A stretch of DNA of 63,171 nucleotides, the filler included. It is 7 parts of 7 records of this genome, joined end to end, with 100 filler letters (N's around TTAATTAATTAA, not from the genome) between each part and the next. Parts side by side here need not be neighbours in the genome. Positions count along the whole stretch, not along the records: positions 25,994 to 33,323 come from SRR31156797_58430; 6 more parts are not named here. One strand, 5' to 3'. The notes beneath the pieces are model-generated. The model did no database searches. It had not been told where the DNA came from and worked only from the letters and a program-made list of their open reading frames with translations. Positions within the stretch are counted from its first letter, which is position 1, and each line of letters begins with the position of its first letter. The translations under genes were made by a program, and so were the position numbers. Shown piece by piece: positions 24,195 to 55,618 of this stretch.

Positions 24195-25198
24195 GGCTGA
24201 GATCGCTTCTCCAGCTTGGTGAAGAAATCGCGGAAGATCGGATCGCGACGCACGAAGTTCACCATGCGAATCAGATGGCGAGAATTATCGAAACTGTACG
24301 TATAGTCATTCGTCACGATCGGACTGTGCACCAGATCGGAAGGCAGCCACGTGTCGTTGATCAGCCAGGCAATGGCCGTCATATCCCAGAGGACCTTGGA
24401 CCAGCCGAAATGATCCTTGCGGTAGTCCTTGAAGATCTTCAGCAGGTAGTCGCCGATGGCCCCGCGACCGGCCACGTAGCGCTCCATCTCGGGCACGGTG
24501 GTCGCGAAATGCGTCACGATGGGCGTACAGGGCAACTGGACGAAAGGCACGCCGCAATGAAAAACCGTCCGCGAGGCGTTCAGGTCCTGCATGTAGTTGA
24601 ACTCTCGCTGGTGGGGCCAGTGATGCCCGTTGCCACCGAGCCAGACGACCACGATGTTCTTGATGATAGCCGGCTCGATGAGGATGGCGTTGCTGACGTT
24701 GGTGATGGCGCCGACGGCCACAACGTAGAGTGGATCGTCGGGGCTGCTTTTCTGGGCACGCTCGATCAGGTCCAGGGCCGCGGCACTGCGCTCGGGCTGC
24801 TTCGGATCGGTCAGATAGTGCGTGCTGCCTCGGAAGGCGAAACCGTCGGGCGACCGGTCCAGCTTGTCCAGGACGCGCAGGATTTCCTCGTAGCTTTTCT
24901 CCATACCATCGCCCGGTCCGGTCGAGCGGCTGTTCTTGAAGGGCGCGGCGTAGACCGCCTGGACGTCCAACTCGGGCGAAATCAAAGCGTAGACCAGGGC
25001 GAACTGATCGTCGATTTCGTTGTACGTATCCGTGTCGAACACCATCCGAACGGGCCTGGCCTGCGGAGGCTGGAGCATCGCGATTCGCTGCCCTTCCGGA
25101 ATCGTGGGAAACTCCTGAGCGCCCAGCGGAGCGACCGTTGCCATCAAGAGCCAAACCCAAATTGCGTGCAGCAGGATCCTCATACGTCGTCCTTTCAT
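24191..25198 (-). CDS. Nucleoside hydrolase family protein with signal peptide
   Basis: Motifs FDTDTYNEIDDQFAL, GAITN, WLGG, EFN, LWD. Confidence 0.88.
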   Translation of the reverse strand: MKGRRMRILLHAIWVWLLMATVAPLGAQEFPTIPEGQRIAMLQPPQARPVRMVFDTDTYNEIDDQFALVYALISPELDVQAVYAAPFKNSRSTGPGDGMEKSYEEILRVLDKLDRSPDGFAFRGSTHYLTDPKQPERSAAALDLIERAQKSSPDDPLYVVAVGAITNVSNAILIEPAIIKNIVVVWLGGNGHHWPHQREFNYMQDLNASRTVFHCGVPFVQLPCTPIVTHFATTVPEMERYVAGRGAIGDYLLKIFKDYRKDHFGWSKVLWDMTAIAWLINDTWLPSDLVHSPIVTNDYTYSFDNSRHLIRMVNFVRRDPIFRDFFTKLEKRSQP

Positions 25199-25659
25199 TC
25201 AAAATCGGCGCGGCCGCCGGAGACGGTTTCGTCGCGCGCCATCATGAGCATATCACGTACGGCTTCCGGATCGGCGATGCCATACAGGGTCGCTTCGGGG
25301 ACCGATTGTCCCGTCCCGGCCGTCTGAATGCGCAGCTCCCAGATCCGACATAATTTCATCAAGGGCCCTTGTGCCAGAACCGCATCAGTGATGCGATCCA
25401 GCGGAATGGCTTTGCGCTTCAGAAAGAACACCCCGTGGTCGACGCGCAGCGTGCTGCCCTCGAGCCAATAGTGCAGCGCTTCGGCTTGCTTGCGCGAGAG
25501 CCAGGGCCCCAACGTCACCGCATGCAAAATCGCCAACGCCAGCCCCACGCCGCAGAACCAGATGCCGACCACAATAATCATCAGAATCTGCATCCAGTAG
25601 AAATACCGCGCCACGGGCTTGCGCTGCACGGAAAACTCATTTGTCGTTGGCTCGTCCAT
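25195..25659 (-). CDS. Bacterial PH domain (YdbS-like) membrane protein
   Basis: Two TM segments, then GVFF...IPLDRITD...QGPL...LRIQTAG. Confidence 0.8.
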   Translation of the reverse strand: MDEPTTNEFSVQRKPVARYFYWMQILMIIVVGIWFCGVGLALAILHAVTLGPWLSRKQAEALHYWLEGSTLRVDHGVFFLKRKAIPLDRITDAVLAQGPLMKLCRIWELRIQTAGTGQSVPEATLYGIADPEAVRDMLMMARDETVSGGRADFE

Positions 25660-25811
25660 GCGTCTGTTTCCTTCAAGGCCTGTCCCATGGCTCACCTATG
25701 ACACCCCACCACCATAGCACAGCCAGCGACATCCATCCAGACCCTGCCCGCGATTTCGGTCTTTCGCGCCGGATTGATACCTGGGGCTGAAATGGACCGA
25801 TAGAGGTCGAC

Positions 25812-25893: not shown

Positions 25894-25993
25894 NNNNNNN
25901 NNNNNNNNNNNNNNNNNNNNNNNNNNNNNNNNNNNNNTTAATTAATTAANNNNNNNNNNNNNNNNNNNNNNNNNNNNNNNNNNNNNNNNNNNN
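25894..25993. other. Artificial contig linker
   Basis: N44-TTAATTAATTAA-N44. Confidence 0.98.
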
Positions 25994-26941
25994 GCAACTG
26001 ACGCCCATTCCGATGGGGCAGGAAGCCCCGTGGCGGGGCATTCGGATAACCCGAACATCCAGACAGAAATATTTGCCGCCGAACTGAGCGCCGATGCCGG
26101 TCTCCCGGCTCGTTTTCAGAATCTCGTCTTCCAATTCAATGTCCCTGAAAGCGCGGCCGCCCGGCGATCCGGTGGTCGGCAGGTTATCCAGATAACCGGT
26201 ACTGGCCAATTTTACGGTTTTCAGGTTCAACTCCGCCGACGTCCCGCCGATGGCAAAAGCCAGATGATAGGGCGGGCAGGCTGCCGTACCCAAGGTTTTC
26301 ATTTTTTCCAACAGGAATTTTTTGAGCCTGTCCGGATTTAAAACAGCCTTGGTTTCCTGGTAGAGATAGACTTTGTTGGCGCTTCCGCCGCCCTTGGCCA
26401 CAAACAGGAATTTGTAGGCATCGCCCCATGTGGCATACAAATCGATCTGGGCCGGAAGGTTGCAGCCGGTGTTTTTTTCCTCAAACATGCTCAAAGGAGC
26501 GTTCTGGGAATACCGCAGATTGTTTTGGACATAGGCGTTGAACACCCCTTTGCTAATTGCCTCCCTTTCATTGAAATCAGCCCACACCTGCTGGCCTTTT
26601 TTGCCCATGATAAGGGCCGTTCCGGTATCCTGGCACATGGGAAATTCCATCTCCGCCGAAATGACGGCGTTTTTGAGCATCTCCAGGGCAACCAGCCGGT
26701 CATTCTTGGAGGCTTCCGGGTCGTCTAAAATGGCGGCCAGCTTTTCAAGGTGCACCGGCCGCAGCAAATGGGCGACATCCCGGAACGCGGTTTCCGTCAG
26801 AAGCGTCAGGGCCCGGGGTTCAATTTTGAGAATCTCCTTCCCTTCAAAAGAGGTTGTGGAAACATGATCTTGACTTAGAAGACGATACCGGGTGGTATCC
26901 TCTCCCAGGGGAAACATCTCCTGATAACTGAAATCAACCAT
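25994..26941 (-). CDS. fumA: Fumarate hydratase class I (3' truncated)
   Basis: Motifs [60 protein letters not shown] before ATG 26941. Confidence 0.93.
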
Positions 26942-27042
26942 TTTGTTCTCCTTCCAAATTCCCGTATTCTCATATTTTTTTAGCAAAAGGCGTTCATGAA
27001 GATATGTTTTTTGTCTGACGTCTGCGCCATAAAAAAAATGGA

Positions 27043-27071
27043 TTGACATGGCATCCGCAGTTGTTTATTTA
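27043..27071 (+). promoter_or_regulatory. Sigma70-type promoter for the leader/CoA-transferase transcript
   Basis: TTGACA (27043-27048), 17-nt spacer, TATTTA (27066-27071). Confidence 0.65.
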
Positions 27072-27100
27072 AACGGAAAACAAACGGGAGTGCAACAGGA

Positions 27101-27178
27101 ATGAAATTTTTTGGGCAGATATCTTTTTTTGGCTTTTTCTTTTGCTTTAGCCAGAGGTCTGCCCGGCTCCGCCAGTAA
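27101..27178 (+). CDS. Phe-rich attenuator leader peptide MKFFGQISFFGFFFCFSQRSARLRQ
   Basis: 8 Phe in the first 16 codons. GGGAG/AGGA upstream. Overlaps the alternative hairpins. Too short for the ORF track. Confidence 0.8.
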   Translation: MKFFGQISFFGFFFCFSQRSARLRQ

Positions 27179-27237
27179 CAACAAAACGGAGACCATGGGC
27201 AGGCCTCATTAGCCACCCATGGTTGAAAATGACTTTG

Positions 27238-27270
27238 AAGGCCATGGGATTTACCCCATGGCCTTTTTTT
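27238..27270 (+). terminator. Attenuator terminator upstream of the CoA-transferase gene
   Basis: AAGGCCATGGG-ATTTAC-CCCATGGCC followed by T7. Lies about 95 nt before the start codon on the same strand. Confidence 0.88.
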
Positions 27271-27363
27271 GTGGTTAAAAAGGCCCAGCACGGGTTTTGA
27301 ACAACAGGTTGATAGAACGGGGAGCTTCGACGAAAACCATGGGTTAAAAGGAGGTAAAGAGAG

Positions 27364-28572
27364 ATGGGCGGACCTTTGGAAGGGGTTAAAGTAGTTGAAA
27401 TTACGATGTTTCAACAGGGACCGGTGGCGGGGATGCGACTGGGGGATCTGGGTGCGGATGTGATCAAGATAGAAGCGAAAACCGGTGACCCGGCGAGGGG
27501 ATTCATGAAAATCATCGGCGCCATGGCCGGCCTCAAGGGGCATAACTACTATTTTGAACATACCAACCGGAATAAAAGAAGCCTGGTTCTGGATCTCAAG
27601 ACCGAAAAAGGGATGGCGGTATTTCTGGACCTGATCGATGGCGCCGATGTCTTTCTTAACAATATGAGCATCGGCGCACCCATCAAAATGGGGATCGGCC
27701 CGGATGATCTGATGAAAAGAAATCCCCGGCTGATCTATGCCCAGGCATCCGGGTGGGGCCGGAGGGGGGCGGACGCCAAGACCCTCTCCTTTGATTACAC
27801 CGGCATTGCCCGATCGGGACTGATGATGTCCTGTGGCGAAAAAGGATCGCCGCCGACGCAGATTCTGCCGGGCATGGGAGATGAAATCGGTGGACTCATC
27901 TGCGCCTGGGGTATCACCGCGGCCCTTTACGCACGGGAAAAGACCGGCAGGGGGCAGGTGGTGGATACTTCCCTCATGGGGAGTATGATCGGCGCTTTGG
28001 GGTTTATCATGGCCGCACCCGCCATGCTGGGGCAGGAATTCCCCAGGGAGGTGAGGGCCCGGGCCGGCAATCCTCTCTACAATCATTACCGGTGCAAAGA
28101 TGACCGGTGGGTCGCCATTGCCCATCTGGATCCGGACAGATACTGGCCGAAATTGTGCCGGGCTCTGGGGCTTGAGGATCTGGAACAGGATGAAAGGTTC
28201 GGCAGCATTGAAGCCCGCGGGGAAAACGCTGAACCCCTGGTGGCGATTTTCGATGAGAAATTCGCCGCGAAAACAAGAGATGAGTGGTTTGAGATCCTGG
28301 GCGAAGAAGGATGCATTTTCACGCCGATTCAGACCCCCACAGAGGTTACCAACGACCCCCAGGCACTTGCCAACCACTACTTTATTCCCGTGGAGCATCC
28401 CGACTGGGGCGCCACCAAAATGACCGGATTCCCATGGGATTTCAGCGAAACACCGGCATCATGGCGGCGAAAGGCACCGGGATTTGGAGAACACAGTGAA
28501 GAAATCCTAAAAGAGCTGGGTTACACTAAAGAAAAGATAGCATCCCTTAAAGGAGATGGTATTGTTTCATGA
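27364..28572 (+). CDS. Family III CoA-transferase (CaiB/BaiF)
   Basis: Motifs PLEGVKVVE, LGDLGADVIKIE, NRNKRSLVLDLK, NPRLIYA, TGRGQVVDTSL, PGFGEHSEEIL. AGGAGG RBS. Confidence 0.93.
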   Translation: MGGPLEGVKVVEITMFQQGPVAGMRLGDLGADVIKIEAKTGDPARGFMKIIGAMAGLKGHNYYFEHTNRNKRSLVLDLKTEKGMAVFLDLIDGADVFLNNMSIGAPIKMGIGPDDLMKRNPRLIYAQASGWGRRGADAKTLSFDYTGIARSGLMMSCGEKGSPPTQILPGMGDEIGGLICAWGITAALYAREKTGRGQVVDTSLMGSMIGALGFIMAAPAMLGQEFPREVRARAGNPLYNHYRCKDDRWVAIAHLDPDRYWPKLCRALGLEDLEQDERFGSIEARGENAEPLVAIFDEKFAAKTRDEWFEILGEEGCIFTPIQTPTEVTNDPQALANHYFIPVEHPDWGATKMTGFPWDFSETPASWRRKAPGFGEHSEEILKELGYTKEKIASLKGDGIVS

Positions 28573-28679: not shown

Positions 28680-30419
28680 CTATGGTTGACGCTGCCCGGT
28701 AATGATCCGCTTCTGTGCCTCTTTCCCCTTCAGATTCTTTTCAACAAAAAGCTTTTGCCCCGTAAAAGGATCCCGGCCGGTATAATACATAAGGGTTGAA
28801 TATGTGGCGGGTGTGGGCGTAAAAATCTGCACCTGCTCGGGCAAGAGGTGTAACGTTTTCGTGGCGAACTTTCGAAGGGCCTGCATGTGGCCCATGGTGC
28901 ATCCGGGATGAGCGGCCATGAAATAGTAGGTCAGAAACATTCTGCTACCGATTTTTCGTTTCAACCCGTTGAAGAGACCTACAAATTTCTCAAGGCCATA
29001 TCCCCCCGGTTTTCCCATGAGATTCAAAACCGCATCGGAAACATGCTCCGGTGCAATTTTAAGCTGCCCTGACACATGATGCCGCAAAATCTCTTCCAGA
29101 TAGTTTCTGCCCATCTTACGGTCATGGAGAATCAAATCGTACCGGATACCCGACCCCACGAAAACCTTTCGAACGCCGTCCAATTGAGACAGGGCTTTTA
29201 AGAGATGCATCTGTGGACCGTGATGGACCGGCAGATGCTTGCACGGTTCGGGGAAAAGGCATCCCTTGTCTTTGCAGGCCCCTTGTTTCTGTTTCAATTT
29301 GCACTCAATGCCGTACATATTGGCCGTTGCCCCGCCCACATTGGAAATAATCCCCTTAAAACGGGGATGCTTCAAAAATCCGCGCGCTTCACGCAGAAGG
29401 GACGCCTCGCTGCGGGACGAAACATGCCGCCCCTGGTGAACCGTAATGGCGCAGAACCGGCATTCCCCATAACACCCCCGGTGGGTGGTCAGGGAAAACC
29501 GAATGGTATCCAGGGCCGGAACCTTCCCCTTTTTCCCGTAAAAGGGGTGGATATCCCTGGCGTAGGGGAGTTCGTAAACCCGGTCGAGGGCATTTGGAGG
29601 AAGGGGTAAAGCGGGGGGATTCTGCACCAGGTAGCGTGTATCCTGTTTCTGATAAAGCCGTCTGCCGGTCATGGGATCCGCATTTTCATAGAAAGCCTTG
29701 AACATGCGGGTGAATCGATTCCGGTCTTTCGACACTTCATTGTGTGGGGGAAGCAGCAGATCCGGAGACGGGAATTGAGAATCGGGTACCGGAACATCCC
29801 GGCTGATGTAGCAGATGCCGCGAATTCCCGTTATGGGCAAACCCTCACGACGTTTTTGAGCCAGCGCCACCACGCTGCTCTCACCCATGCCGTACACCAG
29901 CACATCGGCTTTGGCGTCAAACAGGATAGACCGTCTCACCGAGTTCGACCAGGCATCATAATGGGATATGCGCCTCAGACTGGCCTCAATCCCACCTAAG
30001 ACAATAAAGGCATGGTTCTTGAAATACCGACGAATGAGGTTGCTGTAGATAATAACGGCCCGGTCGGGACGTTGGGAGTTTACACCCCCCGGCGTCAGGT
30101 CGTCCCGTTTGCGACGTTTCCCCGAAGCCGTGTAATTGGCAACAAGGGAATCCACGGCTCCGGCGGTCACTCCCCAGAACAGTTTCGGAGAACCCAATCT
30201 TGAGATATCCCCACCACCCTGCACATCCGGCTGGGCGATGATACCGACCCGGAAGCCTTCATCCATGAGTACCCGACCCATAACCGCCACACCCATGTGA
30301 GGAGAATCCACGTAAGCATCCCCGGTCACCAGAATCACGTCCGGAGCGTCCCAACCGAGATCCGAAATCTCTTTTCGGGTTGTGGGAATAAAGGGCGGGG
30401 TTTGGGAAATGGAGATCAA
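28680..30419 (-). CDS. ygiQ: YgiQ family radical SAM protein
   Basis: Motifs VTGDAYVDSP, GGIEASLRR, CYGECRFC (CxxxCxxC), SGIRYDL, LKIAPEH, YFMAAHPG, EQVQIFTPTP. Confidence 0.92.
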   Translation of the reverse strand: MISISQTPPFIPTTRKEISDLGWDAPDVILVTGDAYVDSPHMGVAVMGRVLMDEGFRVGIIAQPDVQGGGDISRLGSPKLFWGVTAGAVDSLVANYTASGKRRKRDDLTPGGVNSQRPDRAVIIYSNLIRRYFKNHAFIVLGGIEASLRRISHYDAWSNSVRRSILFDAKADVLVYGMGESSVVALAQKRREGLPITGIRGICYISRDVPVPDSQFPSPDLLLPPHNEVSKDRNRFTRMFKAFYENADPMTGRRLYQKQDTRYLVQNPPALPLPPNALDRVYELPYARDIHPFYGKKGKVPALDTIRFSLTTHRGCYGECRFCAITVHQGRHVSSRSEASLLREARGFLKHPRFKGIISNVGGATANMYGIECKLKQKQGACKDKGCLFPEPCKHLPVHHGPQMHLLKALSQLDGVRKVFVGSGIRYDLILHDRKMGRNYLEEILRHHVSGQLKIAPEHVSDAVLNLMGKPGGYGLEKFVGLFNGLKRKIGSRMFLTYYFMAAHPGCTMGHMQALRKFATKTLHLLPEQVQIFTPTPATYSTLMYYTGRDPFTGQKLFVEKNLKGKEAQKRIITGQRQP

Positions 30420-32797
30420 AGCGTTTTAACACCCTGCCTGACGGATTCCGCGGCCACAAAAGGTCGCTTCCTGGCCGCACCCATATTGACCGTTACCCGC
30501 AAAGCACGCAGCCCGTGCACCCCCTGAAGATCCTGCAATTCAAGTTTTTCGATTTCCTTCTCCAGGTAGTTTTCTTCCTGCAGATAATCAATATACTTCA
30601 GGTATTCGCGCATTTCCCGTCCATGTGAATAGACAATGGCGATTTTTCCGGGCTGGGTTAAGCGTTCACTGCTCCCCTTGATCATGGCCTTGTCGATGCG
30701 TTTCTTGATGATTTCATGACGAATGTCATAGGCCCCGTCCACATCGAAGCGTCTCTCGTCGGGACGGAAGCGGATGGATAAGGGGGTATCCTGGACCAAG
30801 ATCAAATGGGCGGCTTCGAGGGGCATTTTGGAAGTGGTCTTCAGGTCTTCCGTCCGCCATGCCACCCCGCACATGACCATTAGCTGCCACAACCGCAGAT
30901 TTTTGAGATAAAGCATATCAAACTTCAGATCCTCCACCATGGAGGCACCCATGTAGATGGTATAATCCACGCCATCGGTTTTCATTTTTTCAAAATAATG
31001 GGGGAAAAAAGACTGGGCGGTCTCTTCCTCCTCATCCAGGTATGCGCTGATGACTTCATTGATCCGAAAGATGCTTTCCTCGAAATCCTTCCGCTTTCGA
31101 TAAAGGGCGCCAAGGGACGGCTCCAGCGCGGCGCGATAGGTCTCAATCGGTTCGCGAAGGGTCGGATCGGCATCCATGAGATGGTCCAATACCGGTTCGA
31201 TTTCTTTGCGAAGAAAATCCGCCTTGGCCACCTCGTCCCCTGAATTGAGGTTATCTTTGACCTCCTCAATATTCCCTTGTATCCGGTAGTTTAAGGCATC
31301 CAGAATGGGGAGGGGTTTCTTCTCCCGGGCCAGCAAAATGATCTCCTGAACCATTGTGAACTGTTCCACCAGGTCCGATTGAAGGGCCGTATTGCGATAA
31401 TCGCTGGAATCCCTGATGTCGGAAACCCCATAGAGGGGGTAAACATTGGGGAACAGTATGGGTTCCAGTTCCGTCACCGTTTCCCGGTCCTGCCCCATGT
31501 AATTGAGCGCCGCCCGGTGAAAACGCCATTCCACCGAAGGATGGATGGCCGTGCATTTCTCCTTGATAATGGCCTGAACCCGGTGGTTGAGTTCCTCCAT
31601 ACCCCGGTTGATGGCCATGGAAAAAAGCGGTATGATTTCCTGAAGCTTCATGGTATCCAGCATGCTGAAAGCGTCCGGGTGCGGTGATTTGACGGAAAAA
31701 GTTCCCAGGAGCCGCTCCTGGTAGTACAGGGGCGCCACAAAAAGACTTCTCACACCCTTTTCGATCATGTGCTGTTCCAACGGGGTTTTGTTTGGATACT
31801 TTTGAAGATCCCGAATAATCTGTTGTTGGCCTTTCTCCACCACTTCCACAAAAAGCGAACCCCCGAAATCTTCTTTCATACGATGTTCCGAATCGGAGAA
31901 GATACAGCCCCTCTCACAGCCATCATCCATTTTATGATCGGGATTTAGAATCAACACTTCCTCACCCTGAAAAGCGGCCAGATCCATGATCAAATCCGGT
32001 TGCCCCAAATAAATGCGAAGTTTTTCATGGAGTTTTAAAAACCCTTCCGATGAAAAAATGGATTCCTTTTCAATGAGGTCCCGTTTAAGGGATGACAATA
32101 CTTCCTGGTCCGTCACATCCACGGCCCGGCAGACACCGAACCCCTGGAAAAGAAACCGATCCGGAGGTAAAATTTCCATCCAGTGAACGGGATCGTCACC
32201 CGCGGATAGAATCCATTCCCGATCCGCATCGGATAAAGGCTTCAGTTTCCCGGTCTTTCGAATTTCCACAAAGCGCGGATCAAAAGAGATGTTCAAAAAC
32301 CGATCCAGCTGGGTTTCAGGGTCCTTCAAGGTTACAATTAAGGGAAAATCATGGGGAAACCGCATATGGTAAAAGGTTTCAAGAATCAGGGAACAGCCCT
32401 TCACAATCCGTCCCATGGCCCAGTGCTCGGCATCCAGATTTGCCAGATTTCCAAAATCCATGCAGTTCTCCGAAGGCCACAGCCGCTTGAAAGTGGGGCT
32501 CACATAAACGGTCTCATTTTGGAAAGGGACGAATGCCGCCGCATAATCCCGGTCACTGAAAGCAGGGGGAAATACAAGGCTCATGAGCATATCAATGAGG
32601 CTTCTGTTTTTTTCCAGCACCCGCGAATCTGTAATGGGCTCAAACATTTCCGGCGCATGGTTCAACTCTTTTTCCACCGCTTTCATGATGGCACCCTCCA
32701 CGCCGTCATCCTTTGACAGAAGTTGCCGCCAGAAATCGATCAGGCCGGAAAAACAGAGAACGCTCTTGAATGGAAAATCACTCACCTTGTCAGACAT
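30416..32797 (-). CDS. Large GAF-domain protein of unknown function
   Basis: GAF-like segment GVRSLFVAPLYYQERLLGTFSV. Conserved-looking blocks TAIHPSVEWRF, YPLYGVSDIRDSS, KTDGVDY, FDVDGAY, KKRIDKA, ERLTQPGKIAIVY. Confidence 0.8.
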   Translation of the reverse strand: MSDKVSDFPFKSVLCFSGLIDFWRQLLSKDDGVEGAIMKAVEKELNHAPEMFEPITDSRVLEKNRSLIDMLMSLVFPPAFSDRDYAAAFVPFQNETVYVSPTFKRLWPSENCMDFGNLANLDAEHWAMGRIVKGCSLILETFYHMRFPHDFPLIVTLKDPETQLDRFLNISFDPRFVEIRKTGKLKPLSDADREWILSAGDDPVHWMEILPPDRFLFQGFGVCRAVDVTDQEVLSSLKRDLIEKESIFSSEGFLKLHEKLRIYLGQPDLIMDLAAFQGEEVLILNPDHKMDDGCERGCIFSDSEHRMKEDFGGSLFVEVVEKGQQQIIRDLQKYPNKTPLEQHMIEKGVRSLFVAPLYYQERLLGTFSVKSPHPDAFSMLDTMKLQEIIPLFSMAINRGMEELNHRVQAIIKEKCTAIHPSVEWRFHRAALNYMGQDRETVTELEPILFPNVYPLYGVSDIRDSSDYRNTALQSDLVEQFTMVQEIILLAREKKPLPILDALNYRIQGNIEEVKDNLNSGDEVAKADFLRKEIEPVLDHLMDADPTLREPIETYRAALEPSLGALYRKRKDFEESIFRINEVISAYLDEEEETAQSFFPHYFEKMKTDGVDYTIYMGASMVEDLKFDMLYLKNLRLWQLMVMCGVAWRTEDLKTTSKMPLEAAHLILVQDTPLSIRFRPDERRFDVDGAYDIRHEIIKKRIDKAMIKGSSERLTQPGKIAIVYSHGREMREYLKYIDYLQEENYLEKEIEKLELQDLQGVHGLRALRVTVNMGAARKRPFVAAESVRQGVKTL

Positions 32798-55237: not shown

Positions 55238-55283
55238 AATTATGGTCCTCGTGCAAAAGCTACACCTGATAAATTTACAGATC

Positions 55284-55318
55284 TTGACACATGACCCATA
55301 TATGGACTATATTTGGTC
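55284..55318 (+). promoter_or_regulatory. TA operon promoter with overlapping palindromic operator
   Basis: TTGACA at 55284, TATATT at 55308. Palindrome CCATATATGG and imperfect GACTATATTTGGTC overlap the spacer and -10. Confidence 0.65.
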
Positions 55319-55342
55319 TTATAAAGATAAAGAGGAATACAA

Positions 55343-55618
55343 ATGAAGCCGTCAAGTCAGATAAAACCTATTAGCTATTTGAAGGCCCACGCCGCAGAAA
55401 TAGTCCGCAACCTGGGAAAGCAGCGGGAGCCATTGATCATCACTCAAAACGGTGAAGCTAAAGTTGTGATCCAGGACATTGAAAGCTATGAAGAAACCCG
55501 TGAAACCATGGCCATGTTGAAGATTCTGGCGTTGGGCGTTCGCCAGATCGAGGAAGACAAGGTTCATTCGGCGGCCGATGTGCTTAAAGGCATACGCACG
55601 CGCCGTCGGGACGACTGA
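55343..55618 (+). CDS. Phd/YefM family antitoxin
   Basis: IKPISYLKAHAAEIV...PLIITQNGEAKVVIQDIESYE. Confidence 0.92.
   Translation: MKPSSQIKPISYLKAHAAEIVRNLGKQREPLIITQNGEAKVVIQDIESYEETRETMAMLKILALGVRQIEEDKVHSAADVLKGIRTRRRDD

Follow-up and report, generated by a model that had tools for sequence, protein, structure and literature searches.

Results and Discussion

A Phe-rich leader precedes a family III CoA-transferase gene

We analyzed a stretch of DNA of 63,171 nucleotides (the 63-kb window, or simply the window), in which a small open reading frame (ORF) rich in phenylalanine codons and an intrinsic terminator lie in front of a gene for a family III (CaiB/BaiF) CoA-transferase, designated P0001. 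The coordinates of these and the adjoining features are collected in Table 1. An earlier interpretation made from the letters alone (the sequence-only reading) had placed a Phe attenuator at this position, and the 25-residue ORF, competing hairpins and 12-bp terminator described here bear this out. The same reading had named the CaiB/BaiF CoA-transferase as the only clear gene behind the attenuator, with ygiQ convergent after it, and the profile matches agree. The CoA-transferase gene is monocistronic in the window.

Table 1. Positions of the leader, its RNA segments and the adjoining genes in the window.
Feature	Position	Strand	Details
Class I fumarate hydratase, N-terminal (alpha-type) part	25946-27049, probable start 26943	-	Divergent; FumA profile 5-319 of 548
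Candidate sigma-70-type promoter	27043-27071	+	TTGACA 27043-27048, 17-nt spacer, TATTTA 27066-27071; read by eye
Leader peptide ORF	27101-27178	+	25 codons, 8 Phe; stop 27176-27178; reads MKFFGQISFFGFFFCFSQRSARLRQ, then stop
Phe codons of leader ORF	27107-27112, 27125-27130, 27134-27142, 27146-27148	+	
Segment S0	27111-27120	+	Partner S1; upstream of main Phe-codon run, under stalled ribosome
Segment S1	27154-27171	+	Partner S0 or S2; S1:S2 also present in minimum free energy fold
Segment S2	27187-27207	+	5' and 3' parts pair with S1; CCAUGGG core (27192-27199) alternatively with B
Segment B	27216-27224	+	CCCAUGG core; partner S2 (terminator path) or C (antiterminator)
Intrinsic terminator	27237-27273	+	Arm C 27237-27248, arm D 27255-27266, U-run 27267-27273; 12 pairs, 7 G-C
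Ribosome-binding site GGAGG of CoA-transferase gene	27350-27354	+	Read from sequence
Family III (CaiB/BaiF) CoA-transferase, P0001	27364-28572	+	402 aa; PF02515 full length
ygiQ (radical SAM)	28680-30419	-	Convergent; TIGR03904, 771 bits

An AGGA motif lies 4 nt upstream of the leader ATG. The putative promoter further upstream was left unflagged by a consensus promoter scan because its second hexamer matches at only 3 of 6 positions, and the leaders of related loci have TTGACA-like boxes at comparable upstream distances. Folding of the leader region gave a z score of -4.09 relative to shuffled sequences, with 1 of 200 shuffles folding equally well. To define how unusual such an arrangement is in the window, small ORFs on both strands were screened for at least four Phe within eight residues, followed by a hairpin and a T-run. 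Two of the 1457 small ORFs passed, one of them the leader ORF, whose hairpin counts as a 10-bp stem under this rule. The other, at 55275-55355 on the minus strand, is weak, having a 6-bp stem and a T-run without a match to the RNA scaffold described below, and is probably a chance occurrence. A permissive scan of positions 26900-27450 against Rfam 15 yielded no family at its gathering score; Phe_leader (which we take to be RF01859) was not among the seven weak matches, and the best of these are noise (13-16 bits, E 1.8-8.6).

The CoA-transferase ORF begins ~90 bases past the terminator, behind the GGAGG motif. Residues 5-378 of P0001 cover the whole of the PF02515 profile (1-366 of 366, E 5.2e-114). 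The closest solved structures, all aligned over their full length, are SUGCT (9br6), a formyl-CoA transferase (10uh), a CaiB/BaiF-family protein (4ed9) and a benzylsuccinate CoA-transferase subunit (9fn0_B). Asp173 of P0001 (27880-27882) aligns with the conserved Asp of 9br6 and 10uh; in family III enzymes this is the active-site residue that forms the anhydride and thioester intermediates. All seven matches to NCBIfam subfamilies (Frc, YfdE/oxalate, CaiB, succinate-glutarate, mesaconate and Mct isomerase) fell far under their cut-offs, the best being a formyl-CoA transferase subfamily with 211 bits against a cut-off of 442, followed by one with 207 against 504. Additionally, the SUGCT, Frc, AMACR and BbsF structures are about equally far from P0001 (E 4e-51 to 5e-40). 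The relationship to all of them is distant, and no substrate can be transferred to P0001 by homology.

The leader is conserved in front of P0001 orthologs

A scan of species-representative genomes gave 80 loci, and we examined 60 of them (L001-L059 and L063), whose best tblastn segments share 64-88% identity with P0001. Both strands of these loci, 465,102 bp in total, were searched under a strict rule requiring a small ORF with at least four Phe in eight residues and then a G+C-rich hairpin and a T-run. This gave 28 matches across 27 loci. All 28 lie on the gene strand, directly upstream of either the ortholog itself (18 loci) or an operon in which a second conserved gene, c2, precedes the ortholog (9 loci), and the strict scan found no such leader plus terminator anywhere else in the 465,102 bp. 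Thus, the pairing of Phe leader and CoA-transferase is more than chance. Looser criteria add seven loci (L015, L036, L038, L045, L056, L019 and L039), so that 34 of the 60 loci have a leader; in three the upstream DNA is too short (L006, L035 and L058) and 23 lack one.

A quick tree of 60 rows, comprising the window, 54 orthologs and five distant outgroups, was built with SH-aLRT as its only support measure; L040, L055 and L057-L059 (partial, segmented or duplicate matches) and L063 were omitted. Leaders occur in 27 of the 34 rows on the Thermodesulfobacteriota side and in five of the eight rows of one Dehalococcoidales clade.

The CoA-transferase is present as a tandem paralog pair in L025, L027, L029, L036, L057 and L058. 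By analogy to benzylsuccinate CoA-transferase, such a pair may form a two-subunit enzyme.

Three RNA architectures point to the same switch

Three RNA architectures that are unrelated to one another (types A, B and C) account for the Phe leaders in front of the orthologs. Type A comprises 16 sequences including the window and is a relay of six segments, S0, S1, S2, B, C and D. S0 precedes the main Phe run and S1 follows it; S2 pairs with B in one hairpin, and C with D in the terminator. A palindromic CCAUGG core is common to the S2:B and C:D hairpins, and B can therefore pair with either S2 or C.

Two mutually exclusive states were scored across the 16 type A sequences. In the terminator state (S0:S1, S2:B and C:D), 90.1% of cells are paired, compared with 28-52% in slid controls, and 12 pairs have changed on both sides. 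In the antiterminator state (S1:S2 and B:C) the values are 88.3%, compared with 25-50%, and 8 pairs. The covariation score of each state was reached by none of 500 shuffles, a measure that is inflated by related sequences. Among the individual helices, S0:S1 is paired in 88.1% of cells with changes on both sides in 5 of 10 pairs, S1:S2 in 87.2% with such changes in 7 of 18 pairs, S2:B in 89.1%, and the C:D terminator helix in 94.8%.

To mimic the ribosome, constrained folds were computed for a nascent transcript of the window that stops short of arm D, with the region under the ribosome masked. When the Phe codons were masked, as for a stalled ribosome, the fold consisted of S1:S2 plus B:C. 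When the stop-codon region was masked instead, S2:B formed and C was left free for D. Constrained folding thus predicts that the position of the ribosome would determine the choice of fold.

Types B and C are simpler. In these leaders S1 lies before the Phe codons, and S2, which overlaps the stop codon, has complementarity to part of the terminator. Between subgroups of types B and C a G-C pair of the S2-terminator pairing is swapped for A-U, as read by eye from the alignment. All three architectures imply the classical logic, in which a shortage of Phe leads to read-through. An inverse logic, with stalling leading to termination, had first been read from the five 3' segments and was dropped given S0 and the designs of types B and C.

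In the window, the switch would work as follows. When Phe-tRNA is scarce, the ribosome would stall on the Phe codons and cover S0; S1 would then pair with S2 and B with C, and RNA polymerase would read into the gene. With ample Phe, the ribosome would reach the stop codon and disrupt S1:S2, leaving S2 to pair with B and C with D, and transcription would halt at the terminator. A classical leader-peptide transcription attenuator of this kind very probably controls the monocistronic CoA-transferase gene.

The same scaffold precedes aromatic biosynthesis genes

We built a covariance model of the 3' part of type A (R1), with the window sequence included, and searched it in the window and in the genomes of five relatives, G001-G005, reached through L004, L002, L013, L003 and L020. 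Within the window, the only R1 matches are the site at 27153-27272 and, on the opposite strand, the terminator. In the relatives' genomes it recovers the leaders of the P0001 orthologs and, additionally, the same scaffold with other leader ORFs. Trp-rich leaders precede trpE and a PALP/trpB-like gene, and mixed Trp/Phe/Tyr leaders precede DAHP synthase (two genomes) and aroK (two genomes, in one of which an aroC-like ORF, identified by eye, follows). Phe-rich or Phe/Tyr-rich leaders were found before class I/II aminotransferases in two genomes, and Tyr-rich or mixed leaders before MBL-fold proteins. The codon-swapped leaders on the R1 scaffold lie at L086, L103, L100, L087, L090, L095, L091 and L092 (G002-G005). 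Weaker R1 matches are plain terminators without a leader (L088, L093, L097 and L099), and one further weaker match lies before a TrpRS gene without a leader ORF.

Since the scaffold precedes aromatic supply genes, the element very probably acts as a starvation-ON switch for supply genes in the relatives. These Thermodesulfobacteriota metagenome-assembled genomes contain a modular aromatic "attenuon", and the CoA-transferase sits in the Phe-specific branch of this aromatic regulon. The orthogroup of P0001 is tightly conserved and, in Thermodesulfobacteriota and some Dehalococcoidia, regularly belongs to the Phe/Tyr branch. Its fellow members in this branch are the class I/II aminotransferase and c2, a GNAT plus kinase-like protein. 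The sequence-only reading had proposed that the gene is wired as a Phe supply gene; the conserved antiterminator and terminator, the constrained folds and the occurrence of the scaffold before aromatic biosynthesis genes all favor this proposal. P0001 probably helps in Phe supply or in the response to Phe starvation.

A GNAT plus kinase-like protein is co-regulated with the CoA-transferase

c2 is a conserved protein of ~526 aa whose sole Pfam match is a GNAT domain. The sequence-only reading had not anticipated this protein. In 10 loci c2 forms an operon with the P0001 ortholog, which it precedes, and a Phe-rich leader stands in front of the pair. A covariance model of type B (R2) was searched in five further genomes, G006-G010, and found extra F/Y-rich leaders before c2 homologues in four of the five. 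These homologues are monocistronic and are 43-46% identical to P0122 over at least 460 residues. A convergent gene of ~327-352 aa follows the monocistronic c2 at L134-L137 (G006, G008, G007 and G010).

An AlphaFold model of c2 has a pLDDT of 75.6 and matches GNAT structures with a Z of 9.7. Foldseek against the PDB recognized the GNAT part alone. For residues ~305-527, VIA-align matched protein-kinase-like and aminoglycoside-phosphotransferase folds with middling scores (WaaP Z 8.2, root-mean-square deviation 4.9, 156 residues aligned).

The three genomes closest to the window (G001, G002 and G004) carry c2 within open frames of 853-903 aa. In G001 (L117 539-3091, 850 aa) it stands behind an MBL-fold domain, after an F/Y/W leader. 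Judged from frame length alone, the frames in G002 (G002:C10, 903 aa) and G004 (G004:C109, 855 aa) would be MBL-c2 fusions as well. G005 has a separate 330-aa MBL-fold protein after a Tyr-rich leader (L096/L118 3228-4220). In the 63-kb window, tblastn with c2 returned chance matches only (E of at least 4).

Neighbors of the orthologs hint at an aromatic substrate

The genes beside the orthologs offer hints about the substrate. Two HGD-D/BCR-family subunits adjoin the ortholog in 10 loci, after it in nine Dehalococcoidia-type loci and before it in L056, and the clusters of L048, L049 and L056 contain an acyl-CoA-dehydratase-type activase. These HGD-type neighbors score under every NCBIfam cut-off, their best matches being double-cubane reductase, BzdN and HadC. 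A LarA-like racemase adjoins the ortholog in five loci, with LarAH10 as the best NCBIfam match (452 bits, cut-off 540). LarAH10 is reported to racemize hydrophobic 2-hydroxy acids, including 3-phenyllactate (PMC11770544). An ADP-forming acyl-CoA synthetase occurs in 9 of the 60 loci, on the same strand beside the ortholog in five and farther away or on the opposite strand in the others, and an FAD-linked oxidase of the D-2-hydroxy-acid dehydrogenase type adjoins the ortholog in one locus. The 63-kb window contains no HGD, LarA-like, acyl-CoA synthetase or FAD-oxidase neighbor and no 2-hydroxyacyl-CoA dehydratase subunit or activator near the gene. A search with R1 and R2 found no leader before HGD-type genes in the Dehalococcoidia loci L048, L049, L053 and L039. 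As hints, the ortholog neighbors point to CoA esters of aromatic or hydrophobic 2-hydroxy acids or of aryl acids; with the Phe signal added, they fit a CoA-transferase for an aromatic 2-hydroxy acid or an aryl acid, in line with the sequence-only reading.

The job that we consider most likely for P0001 is that it would convert an aromatic acid to its CoA thioester at no cost in ATP. The acid, with phenyllactate or cinnamate as candidates, or phenylacetate, would then be salvaged into phenylpyruvate and Phe. Taken as a whole, the explanation that combines an attenuator with a Phe-supply CoA-transferase acting in aromatic-acid salvage is the best available, and we assign it a probability of roughly 45%; the ATP-free activation of an aromatic acid for salvage by P0001 is itself proposed tentatively.

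Several results weigh against this explanation. Aryl-acid salvage leaves the co-regulated GNAT/kinase-like protein and the MBL fusion unexplained. Orthologs of the HGD-type subunits are present in three of ten relatives' genomes and in none of the three closest to the window, and in G003, G005 and G009 neither a small-ORF scan nor R1 or R2 found a leader upstream of the HGD-type genes. In the window and its closest relatives (L001-L004) the CoA-transferase gene is solitary, and the genes downstream are mutually unrelated, encoding in the closest relatives a PAS sensor, an M90 peptidase, a radical SAM protein, a hydrolase and UbiD. The 23 ortholog loci without a recognizable leader include all 10 Acidobacteriota rows of the tree. 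On the RNA side, equilibrium folds of the complete leader retain the terminator in every ribosome state, and antitermination must therefore be kinetic, as we assume; moreover, the minimum free energy fold of the nascent RNA without a ribosome is already the antiterminator, so that the basal state depends on folding order. Lastly, pheA (PF00800) is present in all five relatives' genomes searched, which rules out the absence of pheA as an explanation; the CoA-transferase would therefore supplement the standard route and not replace it. The sequence-only reading had also suggested a link to indolepyruvate:ferredoxin oxidoreductase (IOR), and none was found: among the 14 IOR-alpha loci of G001-G004, none has an aromatic-rich small ORF within 700 nt upstream, and G005 has no IOR-alpha match.

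Alternative roles for the CoA-transferase

A first alternative is that the CoA-transferase acts jointly with the co-regulated c2 and the MBL-fold protein, in chemistry different from aryl-acid salvage. It might, for instance, provide or regenerate the acyl-CoA donor of an N-acylation/deacylation or activation step on a Phe/Tyr precursor; this reaction would then come late in Phe/Tyr synthesis, in an accessory or alternative capacity. The wiring of c2 speaks for such joint chemistry: in 10 loci a Phe-rich leader stands before an operon of c2 and the ortholog, in four of the five type B genomes c2 follows an F/Y leader of its own, and it lies in the 853-903-aa frames of G001, G002 and G004, of which the G001 frame opens with the MBL-fold domain behind an F/Y/W leader, while the separate MBL-fold protein of G005 also follows a Tyr-rich leader. 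Furthermore, known members of all three folds act on acyl-CoA, thioesters or amides. However, no Phe/Tyr route is known to need N-acylation or a kinase, the structural scores for the kinase-like part of c2 are middling (given above), and the 63-kb window has no c2 gene. We consider joint chemistry unlikely, although less so than the alternatives that follow.

The same folds could also be read as a defense module, switched on by apparent Phe starvation, that modifies or destroys a natural Phe/Tyr antimetabolite or an inhibitor of phenylalanyl-tRNA synthetase. An acetyltransferase, a phosphotransferase-like protein and an MBL-fold hydrolase are typical drug-modifying folds, aminoglycoside acetyl- and phosphotransferases are among the structures that c2 matches, and an attenuator senses uncharged tRNA irrespective of the cause. 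A precedent is the attenuator-controlled resistant TrpRS in Streptomyces. A CoA-transferase would nonetheless be unusual as a resistance enzyme, the orthogroup is 64-88% identical across phyla as expected for core metabolism, and the same scaffolds otherwise control biosynthetic genes. We regard a defense role as improbable.

Very improbable is an ordinary catabolic CoA-transferase of the FldA, BbsEF or Bct type for aromatic-acid breakdown, with the Phe-rich ORF meaningless or acting by inverse logic (ON when Phe is abundant): although described family III enzymes are mostly catabolic, the hosts are anaerobes with aromatics-degrading relatives, and HGD/BCR-type genes adjoin the ortholog in some lineages, all 28 strict matches precede the ortholog or its operon, the element is kept in three RNA architectures, both folds covary, constrained folding yields the classical logic, and the scaffold also precedes trpE, DAHP synthase, aroK and aminotransferase genes.

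A bolder reading extends the aromatic-acid salvage explanation, and we regard it as doubtful. It posits an undescribed anaerobic pathway, ON under Phe/Tyr starvation, that makes aromatic amino acids from environmental aromatic acids without the shikimate route and combines the transferase, c2, the MBL protein and, in some lineages, an ATP-activated radical enzyme of the HGD/BCR type. For example, plant-derived cinnamate or p-coumarate would be converted to the aryl-acryloyl-CoA, then to the aryl-lactyl-CoA and finally to the aryl-pyruvate. Such a pathway would equal the reductive branch of Stickland fermentation in reverse.

Comparison with known systems

The leader resembles the pheL-pheA, pheM-pheST, trp and his attenuators in having a short ORF full of cognate codons, mutually exclusive hairpins and a sensor that consists in the position of the ribosome. 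In its layout, the relay of six segments in the window resembles the his type. In contrast to the enterobacterial attenuators, the window leader matches no Rfam family in sequence or structure and is found in other host phyla, and its scaffold is modular, carrying Trp, Tyr, Phe or mixed codons across the whole aromatic regulon. The controlled gene also differs, being a CoA-transferase and not pheA or pheST.

P0001 shares its family with two family III CoA-transferases, FldA (cinnamoyl-CoA:phenyllactate CoA-transferase, Clostridium sporogenes) and HadA (Clostridioides difficile), each of which has 2-hydroxyacyl-CoA dehydratase and activator partners. The ten ortholog loci with two HGD-D-family subunits are similar to the FldA and HadA clusters, whereas the window gene has no adjoining dehydratase. 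FldA and HadA act in amino-acid fermentation, a catabolic process, and we know of no amino-acid attenuator for either. The Phe-specific signal points to an aromatic substrate.

Salvage of aryl acids into aromatic amino acids through IOR has been described in rumen bacteria and in Methanococcus maripaludis, where it uses a ligase and IOR. The salvage proposed here would be similar in that an external aromatic acid would serve an anaerobe as the source of Phe, by way of a CoA thioester. It would differ in its activating enzyme, a CoA-transferase, and in the lack of aromatic leaders at the 14 IOR-alpha loci. A literature search at the abstract level found no report of a Phe attenuator before a CoA-transferase, nor of salvage from phenyllactate or cinnamate to Phe.

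Amino-acid attenuators rank among the most reliable pointers to gene function, since each links a gene to the supply of a single amino acid. In the present case the pointer is kept in three RNA designs and in no fewer than two phyla of uncultured anaerobes from sediment and soil, and it singles out a CoA-transferase and a GNAT/kinase-like protein, neither of which is placed in textbook phenylalanine metabolism. This provides an entry point to a possible salvage or alternative route to aromatic amino acids in anoxic habitats and documents a modular aromatic "attenuon" outside the Gammaproteobacteria. Additionally, it gives a functional handle on the protein family of P0001, which is large and currently unannotated (7615 database proteins with E of 0.001 or less among 8000 scored).

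Other genes around the locus

ygiQ overlaps by 4 nt the end of a gene for a 793-aa GAF-domain protein (30416-32797, minus strand), and the two probably form one operon (28680-32797, minus strand). The divergent gene on the other side encodes the N-terminal part of a fumarase without an adjoining C-terminal or beta part; the next gene (25195-25695, minus strand) encodes a bacterial PH-domain protein. Ten further neighboring genes in the window have no tie to aromatic metabolism.

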